Shown here: piece by piece, positions 11,053 through 43,714 of the stretch | Position numbering within the stretch: position 1 is the first letter of the stretch | Layout of the letters: every line of letters starts with the position of its first letter | IMG/VR virus record: IMGVR_UViG_3300041409_000458 | Strand: one strand, 5' to 3' | From: a virus | Lineage: Duplodnaviria > Heunggongvirae > Uroviricota > Caudoviricetes | DNA: 64,000 nt | The notes under the pieces: model-generated | What the model was told of the DNA's origin: nothing | Database searches by the model: none | Seen by the model: only the letters and a program-made list of their open reading frames with translations | Program-made: the position numbers and the translations under genes

Positions 11053-11679
11053 TTATAATAATAACAATCTATCAACTCCAAAAGCAAATCCGACTCCTCC
11101 TTTATATTCTCCTCCTCCACATACCTGTTTTTGAGCACCTAAGTTATTACAGCTTATTTCAAAGCCCTTTCCGTCCTTGTAGTAATCCAAACCTCTCTTT
11201 ACATCACTTCTAAGCTCAAATGAGCCCGGAATGCTCTTATAAAGGCTTACAGCTAAATCCTTCAGATATCCAAGGTAATCTTTTGTAGGGTTAAGTATTT
11301 CAACCCCTAATTGAGTAAATTGACGATATCTTCCAGATTGAGGTCGTTCTCCTCTGAAACATTCCTGAATGTAGAATAATTTGACGTCCTTTTTATGTTT
11401 GAAAGTTGTAGACGCAAGTTTTTGGACTATTGCCGTATATTCTGGAGCCAAACATATATCTCTTCCTCCTCTGTCTTGAAAATTGAACATGAGATTGTTG
11501 TTTTCCTCTCCTACTTTTCCTTTAAAGGTCTCCTGAAGCTGAATTATTGGAATCGACATTTCTGTGAATCCTTCCGTAATGAGTCTTTGAACTGATTGTT
11601 CAATAAAGTCTCGTTTTCTGTTGCCAAAGAGGATTCGGGTACCTTTATAGCAGGTTTCTTTGATTTCAATGTCTTTCAT
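11053..11679 (-). CDS. class II aminoacyl-tRNA synthetase-like core (HisRS/HisZ-like), lacks anticodon-binding domain
   Basis: YKGTRILFGNRKRDFIE ... FQDRGGRDICLAPEYTA (HisRS N-terminal pattern); motif 2 FRGERPQSGRYRQFTQLGVEI; motif 3 GGGEYKGGVGFAFGVDRL; only about 210 aa. Confidence 0.6.
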   Translation of the reverse strand: MKDIEIKETCYKGTRILFGNRKRDFIEQSVQRLITEGFTEMSIPIIQLQETFKGKVGEENNNLMFNFQDRGGRDICLAPEYTAIVQKLASTTFKHKKDVKLFYIQECFRGERPQSGRYRQFTQLGVEILNPTKDYLGYLKDLAVSLYKSIPGSFELRSDVKRGLDYYKDGKGFEISCNNLGAQKQVCGGGEYKGGVGFAFGVDRLLLL

Positions 11680-11681
11680 AG

Positions 11682-12068
11682 TTATTTTCTTTCTTCTGGT
11701 TGTCCACAATAAATGCAGGAATCTTGCTCTGTATCATCTTCATGATAGTCACATTTGCCATCTGGTGAGTCTCCATTGCAATCCCAACGGTCATCAATTT
11801 CTTCACGTAATCTTGTACCTGAGTAACCCTCAAGCTCAGGAACTTCTTTTAGAGGATATTTACCAAGATAATGAGGTTTAAAACTGTCTCTAGAGTGAAG
11901 TAGGATTGGGTCAGTATATAGAGAAGCAATATAATCAATACTTTGACTCCATTTTTCATTGCTTTTAGGGATATCCATCAATTTATGGATTATCACCCTT
12001 TCTCTGGTAAAGACATTACGTATCATTCTCACTCTATCCTGAAAGCTATAGGGATTTCTTTTATCCAT
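11682..12068 (-). CDS. hypothetical protein
   Basis: 128 aa ORF; Cys/His-rich C-terminus (CDYHEDD...CIYCGQPE). Confidence 0.35.
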   Translation of the reverse strand: MDKRNPYSFQDRVRMIRNVFTRERVIIHKLMDIPKSNEKWSQSIDYIASLYTDPILLHSRDSFKPHYLGKYPLKEVPELEGYSGTRLREEIDDRWDCNGDSPDGKCDYHEDDTEQDSCIYCGQPEERK

Positions 12069-16571: not shown

Positions 16572-16787
16572 TTAATTTTTACGGGTGTAGCTGACATTAA
16601 AACTGTCAACATAGGTAAATCTGTAACCTTTGAACTTCTTAAGGAAGTCAATTTTACCTCTACTCTTCTTGCCAATATCACCTTTTGATGCTGGTGGTAG
16701 TAATTCCTGAATTGTGTTTCCTACCACACGTAAATCGTGCTTTTTCCCTAGTTGTTCAACAACCAAATGTTCTGCATACTCTGCCAT
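16572..16787 (-). CDS. hypothetical protein
   Basis: 71 aa ORF. Confidence 0.3.
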   Translation of the reverse strand: MAEYAEHLVVEQLGKKHDLRVVGNTIQELLPPASKGDIGKKSRGKIDFLKKFKGYRFTYVDSFNVSYTRKN

Positions 16788-16807
16788 TCTGTTAATTTTT
16801 AAGTAAT

Positions 16808-16841
16808 AAAAAAGCCTCTACATTTCTGCAGAGGCTTTTTG
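16808..16841 (-). terminator. bidirectional rho-independent terminator
   Basis: aaaaaagcctctacatttctgcagaggcttttt: 6 bp GC-containing stem flanked by A-tract and T-tract. Confidence 0.5.
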
Positions 16842-17444: not shown

Positions 17445-17747
17445 TTAGTTTTTATCTTTAAGTAATAGTGGTATTTTACGTACCAACTTTTGGGTTAATG
17501 ATGATGGCTCAATAGCCACTGCTGTAATCTGATTGCCAATATCTGGCTCTCTAAATACAGTGTAACACAGTTGATTTCGTTCACAATTTGCAATCAATAA
17601 ACGAAGCTGGGCTTCATTTTGAACTTCCAACTGAACTAAAGTGTTACTTTCATTAAACCAAGGACTCGCTCGTCCCGGATGCTCAAAGATAAAATTAATT
17701 GCTGCATGACAGCTTTGTACAGACTTATACCCGTCTGCAAGGTCCAT
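17445..17747 (-). CDS. peptidyl-tRNA hydrolase, PTH2 family
   Basis: 100 aa; GYKSVQSCHAAINF (PTH2 GK..AQCSHAA motif) and TVFREPDIGNQITAVAIEPSSL (DAG.T.I..GS.TVLAIGP-like). Confidence 0.6.
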   Translation of the reverse strand: MDLADGYKSVQSCHAAINFIFEHPGRASPWFNESNTLVQLEVQNEAQLRLLIANCERNQLCYTVFREPDIGNQITAVAIEPSSLTQKLVRKIPLLLKDKN

Positions 17748-17829
17748 TCTAGTGACTGTGACAAGTTTACCTTGTCTCTACATCAAATCTATGTCTTTCA
17801 TATTTGTAAATACCATGTTTTGTCATGGT

Positions 17830-17905
17830 TGGAGCTCCCTCTATGATTCGAACATAGGGTCCCTTCCTTTGCGGGGAAGTGCTTTACCAACTCAGCTAAG
17901 GGAGC
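17830..17905 (-). tRNA. tRNA, anticodon GCA (Cys-like) with atypical C32-C33 anticodon loop; CCA encoded
   Basis: Hand-folded cloverleaf: acceptor GCTCCCT/AGGGAGC, D-loop AGTTGGTA, anticodon stem CTTCC/GGAAG with loop CCGCAAA, T-arm CTATG-TTCGAAT-CATAG, 3' T-CCA. Confidence 0.55.
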
Positions 17906-17911
17906 TTCTTA

Positions 17912-18130
17912 TTATTTGATTTTTGCTACTATTCCGGATTCATCCTCAACTATCTCTAAAGTGCCTCTAAATTGGAGAGCTCCTTTGGTGTGTGGAGAAT
18001 CAGGAGTTTCTTTTGTTGAAAAACCAACTTCTGAATCTAGGTGGTTTACATAAAATGTCTGACCTTTTGTCTTAACAATCCACTGAGGAATTGTTGAATC
18101 TTCGTTGTGCTTCTTGTTAAAGTGGAACAC
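17912..18130 (-). CDS. hypothetical protein
   Basis: 72 aa ORF. Confidence 0.3.
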   Translation of the reverse strand: MFHFNKKHNEDSTIPQWIVKTKGQTFYVNHLDSEVGFSTKETPDSPHTKGALQFRGTLEIVEDESGIVAKIK

Positions 18131-18183
18131 AATTCTTTCTGTTTGTTCATTTTTGAATATCTAGCTCATATTTAATCTTTTAG

Positions 18184-18255
18184 TGCAGATAAAGAGAATC
18201 GAACTCTTGACAAAAGCTTTTAGAGAGCCATGTTCTACCCCTGAACTATATCTGC
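18184..18255 (-). tRNA. suppressor-like tRNA with anticodon CUA (amber-reading)
   Basis: Hand-folded: acceptor GCAGATA/TATCTGC (7 bp), D-arm GTTC-AGGGGTA-GAAC, anticodon loop CTCTAAA (C32 U33 CUA A37 A38), T-arm AAGAG-TTCGATT-CTCTT; anticodon stem has only 3 WC + 1 GU pairs. Confidence 0.55.
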
Positions 18256-18461
18256 AGGTAATTTAATTATTCCAGCATGTAATTTCCTGTGACAATTTGC
18301 ACATAAGATTATACACTTATTAATTTCTTCTTCAACTTTTAATAGTGAACCTTTATTGTGACCCTGACTCATTAAAAATTTCTTATCTCTAAGATGATGG
18401 TAATCCAGACATACTTTTTCAGATTCATTACATAAAATACAGAATGTTTTAGAGTCTTGAA

Positions 18462-18650
18462 TTAGCTTTTTAAGTGATTGCCTTTTTTCTCATTCCTCTT
18501 ATAAAAAGCTGGTTTATTTTTGTAGTAATGTTTTCTTTTATATTCTCTTTGACATAAGCTACAAACTGTGTGCTTTATTCCTTTAGCTTTATTTTCATAA
18601 ACAAAATCATCTTCTTTTTTGATTACTTTACATTTTATACATTGTTTCAT
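18462..18650 (-). CDS. small Cys-rich (zinc-ribbon-like) protein
   Basis: 62 aa; CIKC ... CSLC pairs. Confidence 0.3.
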   Translation of the reverse strand: MKQCIKCKVIKKEDDFVYENKAKGIKHTVCSLCQREYKRKHYYKNKPAFYKRNEKKGNHLKS

Positions 18651-18826: not shown

Positions 18827-19615
18827 CTATTTCAAAGTGTCATACTTGCTAACAGGCAGATTTTCTCTTCTTGTAGCAAATACTTCCACTGTTTTATCAC
18901 TGGTAAATCCGTATTTGTAATCAACATGTGGTCGTCTGAGGAAGACGTTATAAAAGTTATTAGGATAAATATCCAGCAACGTATTATTAACATTTGCCAA
19001 CTGCTGACATTCAACCTCTAGCTGATAGTAACCTTCTCTCTGAGTCTCTACATAATTGGACAGGTCCTTCCACATACTTGTAAACTCCTCAAAAGGAATA
19101 ACTTTCTGTTCAGATAACCATTTCCATGCCAATTGAGCACCATCCTTTTTGTTATCCATTACAATGGTAGTAATTTGCCTGAACTGGTCAAAATTGATGA
19201 AGGATATCTCTTTTTTTTGATAGTAGCTTTTGCACATCTTATCGAAATACACACCTCTTTGTTGACTCTTTTGAGTGAAAGCATTATATGAAACAACACT
19301 CTCATTAAACATTTTCTTAGGACCATTTACTGGCACCAAGGCTGCAATGAATATAATGATAAGCCATATTCTGAACCATTTAAAGGCAGGTAAGATATTA
19401 TCTTCCGCTTTGGCTAAATCATCGTCTACTGCATAGGCAAATGTTAAGATAATCATTGCAAGACTGGTTAAGCCCAATATCCAGCACATTCCATCGCCAA
19501 GGTTGAAAGTTTGAACTACGAGGTAAGACGTCGTAGGCATTAATAATAAAGTTAAAATGAATAACTTCAGATAATTTTTGTTCATGTTTTTTGGTTTTTT
19601 AGTTAACCCTCCCAT
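18827..19615 (-). CDS. membrane protein
   Basis: 262 aa; several hydrophobic helices (LFILTLLLMPTTSYLVV, ILGLTSLAMIILTFAYAV, IWLIIIFIAALV). Confidence 0.4.
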   Translation of the reverse strand: MGGLTKKPKNMNKNYLKLFILTLLLMPTTSYLVVQTFNLGDGMCWILGLTSLAMIILTFAYAVDDDLAKAEDNILPAFKWFRIWLIIIFIAALVPVNGPKKMFNESVVSYNAFTQKSQQRGVYFDKMCKSYYQKKEISFINFDQFRQITTIVMDNKKDGAQLAWKWLSEQKVIPFEEFTSMWKDLSNYVETQREGYYQLEVECQQLANVNNTLLDIYPNNFYNVFLRRPHVDYKYGFTSDKTVEVFATRRENLPVSKYDTLK

Positions 19616-24541: not shown

Positions 24542-24576
24542 TGGTTTTATTTTAAAAATGAAAGACGCTTATCATA

Positions 24577-24647
24577 TTACAATTGTGGGAATTGAACCCA
24601 CGAGTTTTTATCCAGATTAAAATGCAGAACCACTCTGCAAATTGTTA
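24577..24647 (-). tRNA. tRNA-like element with anticodon CUG (Gln-like) but poorly paired acceptor stem
   Basis: D-arm GCAG-AGTGGTT-CTGC, anticodon stem TTTTA/TAAAA with loop ATCTGGA (U33, CUG), T-arm GTGGG-TTCAATT-CCCAC; 5' TAACAAT vs 3' AATTGTA pairs at only 4 of 7 positions. Confidence 0.4.
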
Positions 24648-25059: not shown

Positions 25060-25551
25060 CTATTTATGCTGTAACCAGCTACCATAATCCAAATTTCCTC
25101 TCTTCTTGTTACACTTCTTACATGCTGTAAGTAGGTTTGATGGATGACTTGCACCTCCTGATTCCCATGTGATAATATGGTCTACAGTCAAAGGTACATT
25201 ATCTATTCCACAATACCTACAACAATAATTATCCCTACGGAATACTTGCCATGAAATCTTTTGGTCAATTTGTCTCTGACCTTTACGAAGCAGTTTTCCT
25301 TCTTCGCCTTCAATGTTACACTTGTCAAGCTGGTCTTGTAAAGTATACCATTGCTCAGATGTTGGTGTGATTATAATCAACTCACCTTTCACTTTCTCTA
25401 GAGGTAAATTGACAAGGTAAACCTCATCATCCTTACCCTCCATCAAAAGACCTTTTATTTGAATATCATTACCCCATGAGAGTAATGGGATTTCGTTAAA
25501 CCCTAGAACTTTCGTCATAAGAGTAATTTTAAATGTTAAAAAAGAAGTCAC
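25060..25551 (-). CDS. HNH endonuclease
   Basis: 163 aa; C-terminal CRYCGIDNVPLTVDHIITWESGGASHPSNLLTACKKCNKKRGN is a canonical HNH motif. Confidence 0.7.
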   Translation of the reverse strand: MTSFLTFKITLMTKVLGFNEIPLLSWGNDIQIKGLLMEGKDDEVYLVNLPLEKVKGELIIITPTSEQWYTLQDQLDKCNIEGEEGKLLRKGQRQIDQKISWQVFRRDNYCCRYCGIDNVPLTVDHIITWESGGASHPSNLLTACKKCNKKRGNLDYGSWLQHK

Positions 25552-26569: not shown

Positions 26570-26639
26570 AATTAGTAGTTCAATACAAATGTATGGAAAA
26601 TGTATTGAACTACCAAATTTATTTTCAAAGAAACTTTAA

Positions 26640-26709
26640 TCACAATGTGAGAGTTGAACTCACTACCCTTTTGTTTGAAAAAATGCTCTACCAAGTGAGC
26701 TAATTGTAT
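26640..26709 (-). tRNA. tRNA-like element (canonical D- and T-arms, weak acceptor and ambiguous anticodon loop, possibly CAA)
   Basis: D-arm GCTC-ACTTGGTAG-AGC, T-arm GTGAG-TTCAACT-CTCAC; 5' ATACAAT vs 3' ATTGTGA pairs at 5 of 7 positions plus one GU wobble; anticodon region TTTTTTCAAACAAAAGG ambiguous; preceded by motif at 26716..26735. Confidence 0.35.
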
Positions 26710-32605: not shown

Positions 32606-32909
32606 TAATTAAATTGAAAAGCTCCCACCACAAGGATGGGAGCAGTTTGCCCCGTTGTAGCTAGGGGCGAATCTCATTAGGCAGCTGCTCTTAGGCGGCT
32701 ACCAAACATGTTGTATACATTGTTATGTATGTTTCTGATAATCTCTTTTTGCTACTATCCTGCTGTCAAAACCGGTCACCCCCACCACATCGACCCTAAA
32801 GTCAATGTAGTTCATTGTGCCACAGCTCTTTGACGAAGATGTGGTGGAGGTGCCGAGAATCGCAAAAAGTAAATTTGTTACTCTCCACTATTTTATGTAT
32901 ATTTGATAC

Positions 32910-33422
32910 ATGAAAACAATAGAATGTATATGTAATAACTGTAATAAGTCTTTTACAAAACCACTAAAGGAACATACGAGGTCCCAAAAAGTAGGGAGGT
33001 CTTCATTTTGCTCCTTGGCTTGTGCTAGTAAATTCAACCCAAATAGATTTGGAGGGAAAGTAGGTAATAGAATTCCACCTAGAAATCCCACTAATCCATT
33101 CAAGTATTATCTAAGAAATATAATGAGGAGACATCATAAATGGGATGTCACTCTTGAGTACCTAAAGCAAATCTGGGATGAGCAAGAAGGAATATGTCCT
33201 TATACTAAAATTAAACTTGTTCTAAATACACATAGTCATAGAAATACTGACATACGATTTACTGCCTCTTTAGACAGAATTAATTCTTCAATAGGTTATA
33301 TTAAAGGAAATGTTCAATTTGTCTCAATGGCAATAAATTATATGAAATCTTCTATGTCTCATAGTGATACTACAGAATTCTTACAAATTATAACAAAGAA
33401 CTTGAATCCACTACTTTCATAA
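32910..33422 (+). CDS. HNH_3-type homing endonuclease, free-standing on the opposite strand
   Basis: 170 aa; N-terminal Cys cluster CICNNC...CSLAC; C-terminal CPYTKIKLVL ... ASLDRINSSIGYIKGNVQFVSMAIN matches the HNH_3 motif; lone plus-strand gene in minus-strand block. Confidence 0.55.
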   Translation: MKTIECICNNCNKSFTKPLKEHTRSQKVGRSSFCSLACASKFNPNRFGGKVGNRIPPRNPTNPFKYYLRNIMRRHHKWDVTLEYLKQIWDEQEGICPYTKIKLVLNTHSHRNTDIRFTASLDRINSSIGYIKGNVQFVSMAINYMKSSMSHSDTTEFLQIITKNLNPLLS

Positions 33423-33682
33423 TGGCGTGGACTATATCTTCACCCGTTCTGGGTGTTGGATGCTCTGGGCTCACCGTAGTGTCCCTAGTCTCTGAACCTT
33501 CCTCAATCTTCCCTGAGGCTCGGCTGCTGATTGCCTACGTCTTTACGTTTAGGGTTCCAGCAATTCTTCCAATTTTTTCATCTGTATTCCTACAAAGCGA
33601 GTCCGATTTTATTCAACTCGGGTCCAAACAGGTGTCTTTCAAAAAATCAATCCTTACGAACTTTGGGCGATTACCATTTATT

Positions 33683-36663: not shown

Positions 36664-36681
36664 TTTAGTTGATTTATTTTG

Positions 36682-36750
36682 TAGAGGCACCGAGATTCGA
36701 ACTCAGATTTCTCCCTCGCAGGAGCGTCCTAGCCATTAAACTATACCTCT
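36682..36750 (-). ncRNA. tRNA-like element lacking an anticodon loop (anticodon arm replaced by a GCGA tetraloop hairpin)
   Basis: Acceptor AGAGGTA/TGCCTCT (6 WC + 1 GU), D-arm GTTT-AATGGCTA-GGAC, T-arm CTGAG-TTCGAAT-CTCGG; middle arm CTCCT-GCGA-GGGAG is a 5 bp stem (4 WC + 1 GU) with GNRA tetraloop. Confidence 0.4.
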
Positions 36751-39498: not shown

Positions 39499-40137
39499 TT
39501 AAGATACTATTTGAAATGCTCCCTGCAAAGTTTCTTCAAGATTACTGAAGGTTGTAATATCAATAAGTCCCAAATTCTTAATTTTAGGGGGATTTTGCCT
39601 GACTGCTGCAAAAAATACATCAATGTACTCTATATCGTTATATATATATGCACTTAACAATTCAGCTATTCCCCCAGTTCTTGGTATTGCTATAACAGGT
39701 ATTCCATTCTGTAATAACATAACAGCTTCATGAAGCGTACCAATCCCACCATTCATAACAATAGCAATATCAACCGATTTAGCTAAGAATTCTCTTCTTT
39801 CAGCCATATTATTACCTGCTGAAATTACCTGTATGGTCTTCTTTGTTAGCTTAGATACAATTTGATATGCTTCAGGTAAATGGTATGGAGTATTGATTAC
39901 CTCTTTATTCTTACCTATACTTTGAGTTTGTTTGGGAATGATACATTCAAAAGTGCCTTTTGAGGGTGTAAGACCAAATCCTGTAAATACATCAAGACCT
40001 ACTCCTTCTACTCCTCCGGTGATTAATACATCACCTTTTTTCATCATCTTTGCGATGATATTACCTACTCTTATACCCATTGACGAGTCATAAGAATAGT
40101 CAGGTACCTGAGCACCAATTACTACTATTCTACTCAT
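39499..40137 (-). CDS. LOG-family (SLOG / TIGR00730-like) Rossmann-fold nucleotide-binding protein
   Basis: Start placed at MSRIVVIGAQ; motif ERREFLAKSVDIAIVMNGGIGTLHEAVMLL matches the LOG-family PGGxGTxxE signature; N-terminal VVIGA...ITGGVEGVG Rossmann glycine loop. Confidence 0.55.
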   Translation of the reverse strand: MSRIVVIGAQVPDYSYDSSMGIRVGNIIAKMMKKGDVLITGGVEGVGLDVFTGFGLTPSKGTFECIIPKQTQSIGKNKEVINTPYHLPEAYQIVSKLTKKTIQVISAGNNMAERREFLAKSVDIAIVMNGGIGTLHEAVMLLQNGIPVIAIPRTGGIAELLSAYIYNDIEYIDVFFAAVRQNPPKIKNLGLIDITTFSNLEETLQGAFQIVS

Positions 40138-40927
40138 ATAAATGGAAATTTTCAGTTGAGGTAATTTGGTTAAGGTCATTCGGATTGTCATTGTAAATAC
40201 ATGAACCCCATATTTTCAGTGCTCCAAGACTACGAACATAATCCATAGCTTTTGTCATTGAAACACCGTATTGTACGCAGTCATCTATTACTAATACACT
40301 CTTGAGGTTAATAGATTGAGCTATTTCTTCAGCCTTGAAATCAAGAACTGTAACTCTGTCATCACTTCTACGCTTAGAATAGCGTATAAACTGTAGTTCA
40401 TTACCTGTAATACCAGCCAAAGCCATGGCAGGTTCAGATGCACTTGCTGCAATACCAATTATGGTATCATAGTTAACTGAATCACCAGCTTCTTGCAGGT
40501 AATATGCTACATTTGATGCTTCTACAAGGGAGCCAAAATTACCCCGGCTTTTGTAACGATAATCATCATCGTAATTTTTGAGTATTTGCAGAGATGGTAA
40601 CAGATTAGTAACAGTTTCAATTTTACCCTGTCCTAAATAGAAGGATGAGTAGAAATCAATACCAGTTCTAACTATTCTGTCATACAACTCTTCTATTGCA
40701 GGAATTGTGTGATTCTGCAAAAGGTCATATACTCCCTGAAATATACAATGCATAGCATGTCGTGCTTCATTCAGGTCTTTTATATTCTCAGCATAAATGA
40801 GTAGGTCAGTGAAGCTGCTGAAGGACTTGTTATAATAAACACCGTCCGTTGGAATCACGACCCTTGATTTTACAAGCATAAGCTTTCTTTTTAGGCGTTT
40901 GAAAAGTAGTTTTAGTTTTATTTTCAT
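40130..40927 (-). CDS. type I phosphoribosyltransferase-domain protein
   Basis: 265 aa; PRPP-binding motif SVLVIDDCVQYGVSMTKA in C-terminal half; about 130 aa N-terminal extension of unknown function. Confidence 0.55.
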   Translation of the reverse strand: MKIKLKLLFKRLKRKLMLVKSRVVIPTDGVYYNKSFSSFTDLLIYAENIKDLNEARHAMHCIFQGVYDLLQNHTIPAIEELYDRIVRTGIDFYSSFYLGQGKIETVTNLLPSLQILKNYDDDYRYKSRGNFGSLVEASNVAYYLQEAGDSVNYDTIIGIAASASEPAMALAGITGNELQFIRYSKRRSDDRVTVLDFKAEEIAQSINLKSVLVIDDCVQYGVSMTKAMDYVRSLGALKIWGSCIYNDNPNDLNQITSTENFHLYE

Positions 40928-43254: not shown

Positions 43255-43714
43255 GTGATAGTATTATGTAGCCACTTGACTACAGATTAGTAATATATTC
43301 ACGACAAACGGATTTGAAATAATCATTACATTTTCCCTCCAGTCAATTGTTGAAAGGGAGAATAGTAACTCATCTCTCAGCTCTATTTCTTCAATTGTTT
43401 TGCAATAATAATCATTTTCAACTCAGATAACTCATTAGGAGTCAATCCTTTAGTGAGGTTTTGTAGTTTAACTGTCTGTTGGAGTTGAGCAGTTGTCTTA
43501 TCTTTGATGTACATGATTGAGTATTTAGTTTTGATTAAAGAAATGAGCAGCATAATACTGCCCATTTTTATTTCCGAGGTTTATATTTGTTGATTAACGA
43601 TAAATTACTAACGGTTGAATGTTGATATTTTCCGGGATTTAATAAATTGATATTCTTGATAACTTCTTGAGTGCCAATAGATTACAAGGATTATCTTCGT
43701 CTATCCCTAATTTG

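Follow-up and report, generated by a model that had tools for sequence, protein, structure and literature searches.

The 64,000-nucleotide stretch of the IMG/VR virus record IMGVR_UViG_3300041409_000458 (Caudoviricetes) analysed here, referred to below as the window, carries on its minus strand a tRNA with the anticodon CUA, a small all-beta protein gene of 85 codons (open reading frame 85, ORF85), a tRNA-Cys(GCA) and a gene of the PTH2 family of peptidyl-tRNA hydrolases (Table 1). The region is probably a recoding cassette, in which the suppressor tRNA gates two client genes, PTH2 and ORF85, through a UAG codon in the leader of each.

Table 1. Features of the window and, where a locus is named, of related PTH2 loci (numbered within that locus).
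Feature	Position	Strand	Remarks
Full-length PTH2-family peptidyl-tRNA hydrolase gene	17445..17801	-	118 codons including TAG
PTH2 leader	17778..17801	-	ATG AAA GAC ATA GAT TTG ATG TAG (MKDIDLM-stop)
Hairpin, 6 bp	17812..17829	-	ACCATG-ACAAAA-CATGGT; between 3' end of tRNA-Cys and PTH2 leader
tRNA-Cys(GCA)	17830-17905	-	ARAGORN; Rfam tRNA model, 63.4 bits
ORF85, small all-beta protein	17912..18169	-	85 codons; TAG at codon 3
Amber-suppressor tRNA, anticodon CUA	18184..18255	-	ARAGORN; Rfam RF00005
Degenerate HNH homing-endonuclease gene	18235..18650	-	two out-of-frame pieces
TAG-ended gene	18827-19615	-	extension under active suppressor, 6 codons
TAG-ended gene	25060-25551	-	extension under active suppressor, 35 codons
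TAG-ended gene	32888-33103	-	extension under active suppressor, 54 codons
TAG-ended gene	40130-40927	-	extension under active suppressor, 9 codons
TAG-ended gene	43383-43565	-	extension under active suppressor, 1 codon
Odd tRNA-like gene	36681-36750	-	
Odd tRNA-like gene	24576-24647	-	
Odd tRNA-like gene	26639-26709	-	
Group I intron	33408-33624	-	Rfam RF00028, 75 bits, full-length model
UUCA locus, L083	2853-2926		
UUCA locus, L088	2832-2905		
UUCA locus, L002	3858-3933		
UUCA locus, L001	3788-3859		
UUCA locus, L085	99-170		
UUCA locus, L092			
UUCA locus, L095			
UUCA locus, L097			

The tRNA(CUA) was called by ARAGORN with the bounds 18183-18255(-) and scored 64.0 bits over positions 1-71 of the Rfam tRNA covariance model RF00005, for which the gathering score is 29 bits. 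The cloverleaf noticed in an earlier, sequence-only reading of this DNA was therefore confirmed, as was the Cys-like tRNA next to it. The tRNA(CUA) cloverleaf is regular, with a 7-bp acceptor stem, the T-loop GTTCGATTC and discriminator A. Its anticodon loop of 7 nt (C-U-CUA-A-A) has U33 and a purine at position 37, and a U-U mismatch stands at the top of the anticodon stem. When it was compared with 236 tRNAs, the closest were CUA tRNAs that adjoin PTH2 in other phages. Assignment of an isotype by similarity was tried and rejected, as the best matches were other suppressors and not Gln, Lys or Trp tRNAs, and the set of suppressor tRNAs compared was itself heterogeneous; the amino acid carried is possibly Gln. 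A tRNA-Cys near PTH2 recurs in distant phages (L040, L044, L045, L056, L064 and L065).

The PTH2 gene had been placed at 17445..17747 in the sequence-only reading. Its family assignment stood, the corresponding 100-amino-acid (aa) ORF on the minus strand scoring 32.8 bits against Pfam PF01981 (curated cut-off 23 bits), but its bounds did not, the true start lying at 17801. The match of the 100-aa ORF covers only profile positions 15-110, and reading through an in-frame TAG at codon 8 (17778-17780; next base A) from the ATG at 17799-17801 raises it to 35.6 bits over positions 2-110. As read-through extends the Pfam match and restores the first strand (beta1) of the fold, the 100-aa ORF is a truncation and the real gene is 17445-17801(-). 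The 5' end of the gene reads ATG AAA GAC ATA GAT TTG ATG TAG AGA CAA GGT AAA CTT GTC ACA GTC ACT AGA ATG on the minus strand, corresponding to MKDIDLM-[TAG]-RQGKLVTVTR-M, in which the final M is the annotated start. No ATG, GTG or TTG lies between the TAG and codon 19, and beta1 is encoded between the leader TAG and the annotated ATG; the standard-code product starts downstream of the TAG and therefore lacks this strand.

The residues KLVTVTR are found in PTH2 homologues (n=85, nearly all with a precomputed PF01981 match) upstream of the annotated Met. In the AlphaFold 2 (AF2) model of a 71%-identical homologue, P0012 (predicted local distance difference test score, pLDDT, 90.7), LVTVTR forms beta1 of a four-stranded sheet. 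A Foldseek search with this model placed archaeal Pth2 structures on top, with template-modelling (TM) scores of 0.82 for 3erj, 0.80 for 1wn2 and 0.75 for 1xty, and gave 0.77 for human Bit1. A profile search of the PDB aligned the phage motifs GYKAVQS-HAA and EPDIGN-ITA with the catalytic Lys and Asp motifs of solved Pth2 chains, and we take the Lys (G-K..Q..HA motif) and the Asp (D-x-G..T motif) to have the catalytic roles that they have in archaeal Pth2. Q29, H32, A33, D87 and T93 do not vary within the PTH2 alignment; Lys26 is conserved at the level of the consensus but stands outside the columns listed as invariant or nearly so, and past the Asp the phage family is shorter by a deletion of 4 residues. 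On these sequence grounds the window gene is a member of the PTH2 family with predicted peptidyl-tRNA hydrolase activity. An apparent alignment of its TAG with Gln (MQDNAKLV) was discarded, since the 'M' there comes from a TTG that lies past a TGA-A quadruplet and was wrongly called as the start. The stem of the hairpin in front of the leader covaries in the alignment (GTCATG..CATGAC in L091, ATCGTG..CACGAT in L088), and the hairpin may be a processing or regulatory element.

ORF85 begins 14 nt past the 3' end of the tRNA(CUA) with ATG(18167-18169)-AGC-TAG(18161-18163)-ATA TTC AAA. Its family comprises 316 homologues, mostly of 85-86 aa, with the N-termini MKQIFK, MNQIFK or MLQIFK; homologues cover the residues downstream of the TAG, and the TAG itself aligns with Gln in the 8 closest. 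The AF2 model of ORF85 (pLDDT 90) has its first strand, E2-6, across the TAG position, and no match to a known fold or family was found in Pfam, PHROG or PDB. In jumbo-phage loci PTH2 is immediately followed by a member of this family, and the L066 copy has an MT[TAG]I leader. As judged from its sequence, ORF85 is a second client of the suppressor tRNA.

The leader stop was then followed across other phages. Viral contigs scanned with the PTH2 alignment yielded a first set of 80 loci, most of which have a CUA tRNA within 4 kb and an in-frame TAG 2-5 codons past the ATG, just before beta1, as in MT[TAG]I.KL.VTRRDL. A second set of 80 independent metagenome loci, classified with an anchor based on hidden Markov models, reproduced the pattern, and both sets were deduplicated to 142 distinct loci, 103 of which have a recoding signal in the PTH2 leader. 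The signal is TAG in 88 loci, with a CUA tRNA in the flanks of 68; TAA in 2, both with a UUA tRNA; TGA in 4, with a UCA tRNA in 3; and the quadruplet TGA-A, with the leader in the -1 frame, in 9, where a UUCA tRNA with an 8-nt anticodon loop was found in 7, plus L085. Among the 142 loci none pairs a leader signal with a tRNA that decodes another signal, and L077 and L098, both with TAG leaders, have only an odd tRNA that could not be assigned. The recoding tRNA is on the strand of PTH2 in 145 of 146 cases and is the tRNA nearest to PTH2 in 15 of 18 tRNA-rich loci.

The leaders have features of their own. The stop, at codon 8 in the window, is mostly at codon 3 elsewhere (range, codons 2-10 of PTH2), the form M-x-stop accounts for 58 of 91 loci, with Thr or Lys before the stop, and the base that follows the stop (+4) is a purine in 86 of 91. 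No ATG, GTG or TTG precedes beta1 in 76 of 91 loci. In the beta1 codons past the stop, variation falls mainly on the third position (entropies of 1.11, 0.54 and 1.58 for the first, second and third positions), a pattern indicating that they are under coding-type constraint.

In the closest relatives of the window PTH2 the leader, 2-8 codons long and in the -1 frame, terminates in TGA-A, and a four-base reading of this signal restores the frame of PTH2. Their leaders, such as MKDGQATG[TGAA]LQGKLVVVTR in L091, MKKDIDVG[TGAA] in L085 and MKQSVTGS[TGAA] in L088, include homologues of the window leader MKDIDLM, which aligns with those of L091 and L085. The quadruplet leaders are directly preceded by a tRNA whose anticodon loop has 8 nt (N-U-UUCA-A-N) and which ARAGORN labels 'ttca' or 'tc'; from sequence the pair looks like natural programmed four-base decoding. 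At about 1000-1150 of L091, the closest relative of the window, the expected UUCA tRNA looks interrupted or degenerate, its 3' half alone being recognisable, and neither Rfam nor ARAGORN called a tRNA there.

Some loci follow other patterns. A divergent PTH2 clade with ordinary starts (L144, L149, L155-L158, L163, L165, L168 and L170) has an internal in-frame TAG 25-42 codons past a conserved Arg (25-27 codons in 9 of the 10 loci), and a CUA tRNA lies downstream in 4 of the 10. A high-GC clade was also seen (L014-L020, L022, L027, L032-L037, L039, L043, L049, L060 and L062), in which the frame upstream of PTH2 is open over a conserved basic stretch and an in-frame A-AAA-AAG heptamer occurs. 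A hidden TGA-A leader was sought in this clade and rejected for want of a consistent pattern. At 3870-4020 of L003 an apparently normal tRNA-Gly(UCC) lies directly upstream of the leader ATG AAG CGG ATC TAA, which is out of frame with PTH2 and matches no stop-quadruplet; a +1 shift at AAG-C-GGA would be a speculative possibility there.

With the leader signal thus placed, we examined how TAG is used in the rest of the window, as the two clients could be part of a wider reassignment. No homology-supported in-frame TAG was found in any window gene besides PTH2 and ORF85, and TAG breaks none of the coding-strand genes into substantial pieces; the terminase, portal and other late genes are intact, as the sequence-only reading had described them. 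That reading had gone on to propose that the phage does not recode TAG itself, a view that codon 8 of PTH2 and codon 3 of ORF85 do not support, and had offered the tRNA as a remnant of a recoded ancestor or a general modulator of read-through, which does not sit with two clients adjoining the tRNA gene. The comparison of TAG with TAA and TGA usage that it suggested gave TAG as the rarest terminator among 103 crude gene calls (TAA 78, TGA 20, TAG 5). Among frames preceded by a stop, those that have a short ATG leader but lack an early start made up 3 of 19 for TAG, 1 of 71 for TAA and 1 of 34 for TGA. PTH2 and ORF85 are two of the three found for TAG; the third, at 16572-16820 (ATG-TAG, with its own ATG 10 codons on), was rejected as a client because its homologues, of 66-79 aa, start near that ATG.

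Reassignment of TAG to Gln over the whole genome or blocks of it (code 15) would make PTH2 and ORF85 two of many recoded genes, the rest lying outside the window. The crAss-like kinship suggested earlier was borne out, the terminase being 26-27% identical to Crassvirales terminases, so that the phage is, by sequence, distantly crAss-like, a point in favour of code 15, which other crAss-like phages use. The Gln residues opposite the ORF85 TAG and the scarcity of TAG as a terminator fit as well, as does the presence of a back-up stop within 9 codons in 3 of the 5 TAG-ended genes; among related loci L093, L007 and L057 look generally recoded and L052 has an internal TAG. Of the marks of code 15, however, the window has the tRNA(CUA) gene and neither many in-frame TAGs nor avoidance of TAG as a terminator. 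Treating TAG as a sense codon in flanking genes gained +0.05 in ORF coverage, compared with +0.06 for the TGA control, and the gain was no better than that control in the window and in 47 of 50 related loci (3 of 50 were exceptions). Both this result and the lack of homology-supported in-frame TAG in other window genes indicate that the recoding is gene-specific and not genome-wide. Moreover, the signal is fixed in gene and position even in standard-code mycobacteriophages, and occurs in ochre, opal and quadruplet forms. We thus consider code 15 an unlikely explanation.

A neutral ratchet, or 'addiction', in which TAGs drift to fixation at tolerant N-terminal sites and lock the tRNA in with no regulatory role, would account for stops in poorly conserved leaders that tolerate any residue and for suppressor tRNAs whose origins are diverse (two have long variable arms); in addition, if the relatives of ORF85 encode their Gln as CAG, a single transition would separate it from the ORF85 TAG. 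Drift would, however, be expected to scatter TAGs, and the signals are instead concentrated in one family, in four forms each with its matching tRNA and in the biased context described above, while the quadruplet version needs a leader ORF in another frame, which is beyond a single drift mutation. We regard the ratchet as quite improbable. Less probable by far is that the TAGs are real stops, the leader being a mini upstream ORF, PTH2 starting at the ATG at 17747 or by reinitiation, and the tRNA(CUA) a passenger in a tRNA island. Gene callers do pick the 100-aa ORF (P0001), this truncated ORF alone passes the Pfam cut-off, and in the phages Bxz1 and Myrna a GTG directly follows the TAG. Yet the truncated product would lack beta1, the stretch before the annotated ATG that codes for this strand shows coding-type constraint, a start codon after the stop is missing in most loci, and reinitiation would leave both the matching of stop and anticodon and the frame-shifted quadruplet leaders unexplained.

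In the recoding cassette that we favour, a ribosome starting on the leader would meet UAG at codon 8 of PTH2 or codon 3 of ORF85. Termination by host release factor 1 would yield a peptide of 2-7 residues, while the phage tRNA(CUA) would insert an amino acid and allow the full-length protein to be made, so that PTH2 and ORF85 would be produced only when the phage tRNA outcompetes the host release factor. Their output would scale with how active the charged phage tRNA is compared with release factor, and the arrangement could act as a delay or a sensor, and PTH2 would then recycle peptidyl-tRNAs or N-blocked aminoacyl-tRNAs during infection. As only read-through PTH2 has beta1, a functional hydrolase would depend on the tRNA, and, as every signal variant, the quadruplet included, contains a stop codon, competition with release factor would be part of the design. 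The neighbouring in-frame TAGs and the covariation across loci are indirect signs that the tRNA may be charged and used at UAG by the ribosome, and by analogy with the early UGA of prfB, the closest parallel, the arrangement would be a gate setting PTH2 output. Rescue of peptidyl-tRNAs against tRNA-targeting defences, which had been put forward in the sequence-only reading, is a plausible candidate role. Beyond the window, we lean, if only slightly, towards an unrecognised switch in crAss-like, jumbo and mycobacteriophages, in which a recoding tRNA (amber, ochre, opal or quadruplet UUCA) would be the obligatory key for PTH2 and sometimes ORF85, and the leader stop would sense the balance of tRNA to release factor.

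Several observations weigh against the cassette. Five genes of the window end in TAG, so that suppression must be partial or the extensions tolerated, and the window is 64 kb of a genome of about 170 kb. Its CUA tRNA resembles no isotype, read-through in infected cells is predicted from sequence alone, and the purpose of gating PTH2 is one that we infer. The GTG of Bxz1 and Myrna could be an ordinary start. About a quarter of the PTH2 loci are without a leader signal, and the loci are phylogenetically related, so that the counts given above are of non-independent events. The high-GC clade has a plain PTH2 start (MATIKMGD) with UUCA-loop tRNAs 0.3-1.9 kb downstream, for which no target was found in that clade. 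Ordinary starts, with no tRNA in the vicinity, were also seen for the PTH2-like domains of RAS14, XacN1 (ORF364) and Aeromonas CC2.

The leader stop is also present in cultured phages. Mycobacteriophage Bxz1 (NC_004687) has ATG TAG GTG (M[TAG]V) with a CUA tRNA 0.66 kb downstream, labelled 'tRNA-OTHER', and Myrna (NC_011273) has a leader stop and a nearby CUA tRNA labelled tRNA-Ser. In Tenacibaculum phage pT24 (LC168164) the leader is MK[TAG]ITKN, the nearby CUA tRNA is annotated as tRNA-Sup and the annotated coding sequence starts 87 nt inside the PTH2 domain. Yersinia phage fHe-Yen9-03 (LT960552) has MSH[TAG]IDKT in a PTH2 gene that lacks annotation, and no CUA tRNA was found in the 2.5-kb flanks of that gene. 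The PTH2 of XacN1 was considered as a suppressor client and rejected, its domain being part of the fused 280-aa ORF364 mentioned above; the authors of the XacN1 genome found no targets for its suppressor tRNAs (PMC5852040). Misannotation thus appears systematic, PTH2 being truncated, missing or late-started and the CUA tRNAs entered as 'tRNA-OTHER' or 'tRNA-Ser'.

Other elements of the window were also noted. ARAGORN called 7 tRNA-like genes in all, including tRNA-Cys(GCA) and the CUA tRNA. Three of the tRNA-like genes are odd: one has a 6-nt anticodon loop ('cg') and 44 bits in Rfam, one, 'Gln(CUG)', has a mismatched acceptor stem and 41.7 bits, and one, 'Leu(CAA)', is without a long variable arm and falls below the Rfam threshold. 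A 218-aa ORF at 11053-11709(-) has the core of a class II aminoacyl-tRNA synthetase without the anticodon-binding domain (Pfam tRNA-synt_His 58 bits, tRNA-synt_2b 33 bits); charging of a phage tRNA by its product is conceivable. The 3' piece of the degenerate HNH gene extends over 21 nt at the 5' end of the tRNA(CUA) gene; the Pfam HNH match is weak (15.9 bits, below the cut-off), as is a blastn match of the region over an annotated HNH endonuclease of phage cr125_1. The gene interrupted by the group I intron was sought and not identified. The plus-strand ORF 32910-33422 has sub-threshold zinc-finger and endonuclease VII matches and may be a homing endonuclease.

Each of the three components, suppressor tRNAs of phages, reassignment of stop codons and phage PTH2, has been described before. 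We found no literature linking PTH2 to suppressor tRNAs or describing a PTH2 leader stop or natural phage UUCA quadruplet tRNAs, in a full-text search that covers few subscription journals, and the linkage appears to be new. The targets of suppressor tRNAs in standard-code phages have been a puzzle, and the window and more than 100 loci point to the phage's own PTH2. Were read-through confirmed, the cassette would be a new portable tRNA-gated switch in nature, with amber, ochre, opal and quadruplet versions, as well as a plausible first step toward full stop-codon reassignment, and phage tRNA islands would be functionally linked to peptidyl-tRNA recycling. If the switch exists as proposed, programmed quadruplet decoding would also have a conserved example in nature. 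Several carriers have been cultured, which makes the hypothesis directly testable.

In code-15 phages the recoded genes are mainly late genes. Reassignment of stop codons in phages (code 15, TAG to Gln, and code 4) by means of phage suppressor tRNAs is described, in part, in bioRxiv 10.1101/2021.08.26.457843, PMC9523058 and PMC10879173. The window resembles these systems, for which a role in timing has been proposed, in that a phage tRNA(CUA) would read in-frame TAG, the host has the standard code and the lineage is crAss-like. In contrast, however, it has two small non-structural genes by the tRNA with one 5'-terminal TAG each, its late genes are untouched, and the same PTH2 client recurs across unrelated phages with ochre, opal and quadruplet signals too.

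The gene of release factor 2, prfB, is autoregulated by a +1 frameshift at an early in-frame UGA (reviewed in PMC5009743). PTH2 is similar in having an early in-frame stop in a translation-factor gene, at which release factor would compete with recoding, and the quadruplet relatives of the window PTH2 likewise end in the +1 frame at UGA; it differs in that a dedicated, co-encoded tRNA would recode PTH2 with no P-site slippage, autoregulation of PTH2 being suggested by analogy only. In the bar minigenes of phage lambda, short ORFs cause drop-off of peptidyl-tRNAs, which then need Pth. PTH2 leaders of the type M-T-stop or M-K-stop are comparable ORFs of two to three codons, with the difference that they continue in frame into the hydrolase gene and are putatively read through.

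PTH2 had been called unusual in phages in the sequence-only reading, which proved not to be so, as about 250 GenBank phage records have it, 207 of them mycobacteriophages, and jumbo phages were reported to carry it (PMC7824862). In that paper the jumbo-phage enzyme was proposed to clear peptidyl-tRNA in ribosome rescue or tRNA repair, and Pth can also detoxify tRNA-acetylating toxins (PMC9241777). The window gene is of the same PF01981 family as the PTH2 of jumbo phages and cluster C mycobacteriophages and, like it, is set in a phage tRNA gene cluster; PMC7824862 mentions neither dependence on a recoding tRNA nor a leader stop, nor does it use the word 'suppressor'. Gating of genes by amber or quadruplet codons with orthogonal tRNAs has been engineered (PMC8481270, PMC9094753). 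As in those designs, the gene would be conditional on a cognate suppressor, and the N-U-UUCA-A-N loop of the relatives, reading UGAA, has the form of a synthetic quadruplet tRNA. Unlike the engineered systems, these cassettes are natural, conserved and phage-borne, the window holding the triplet amber form.

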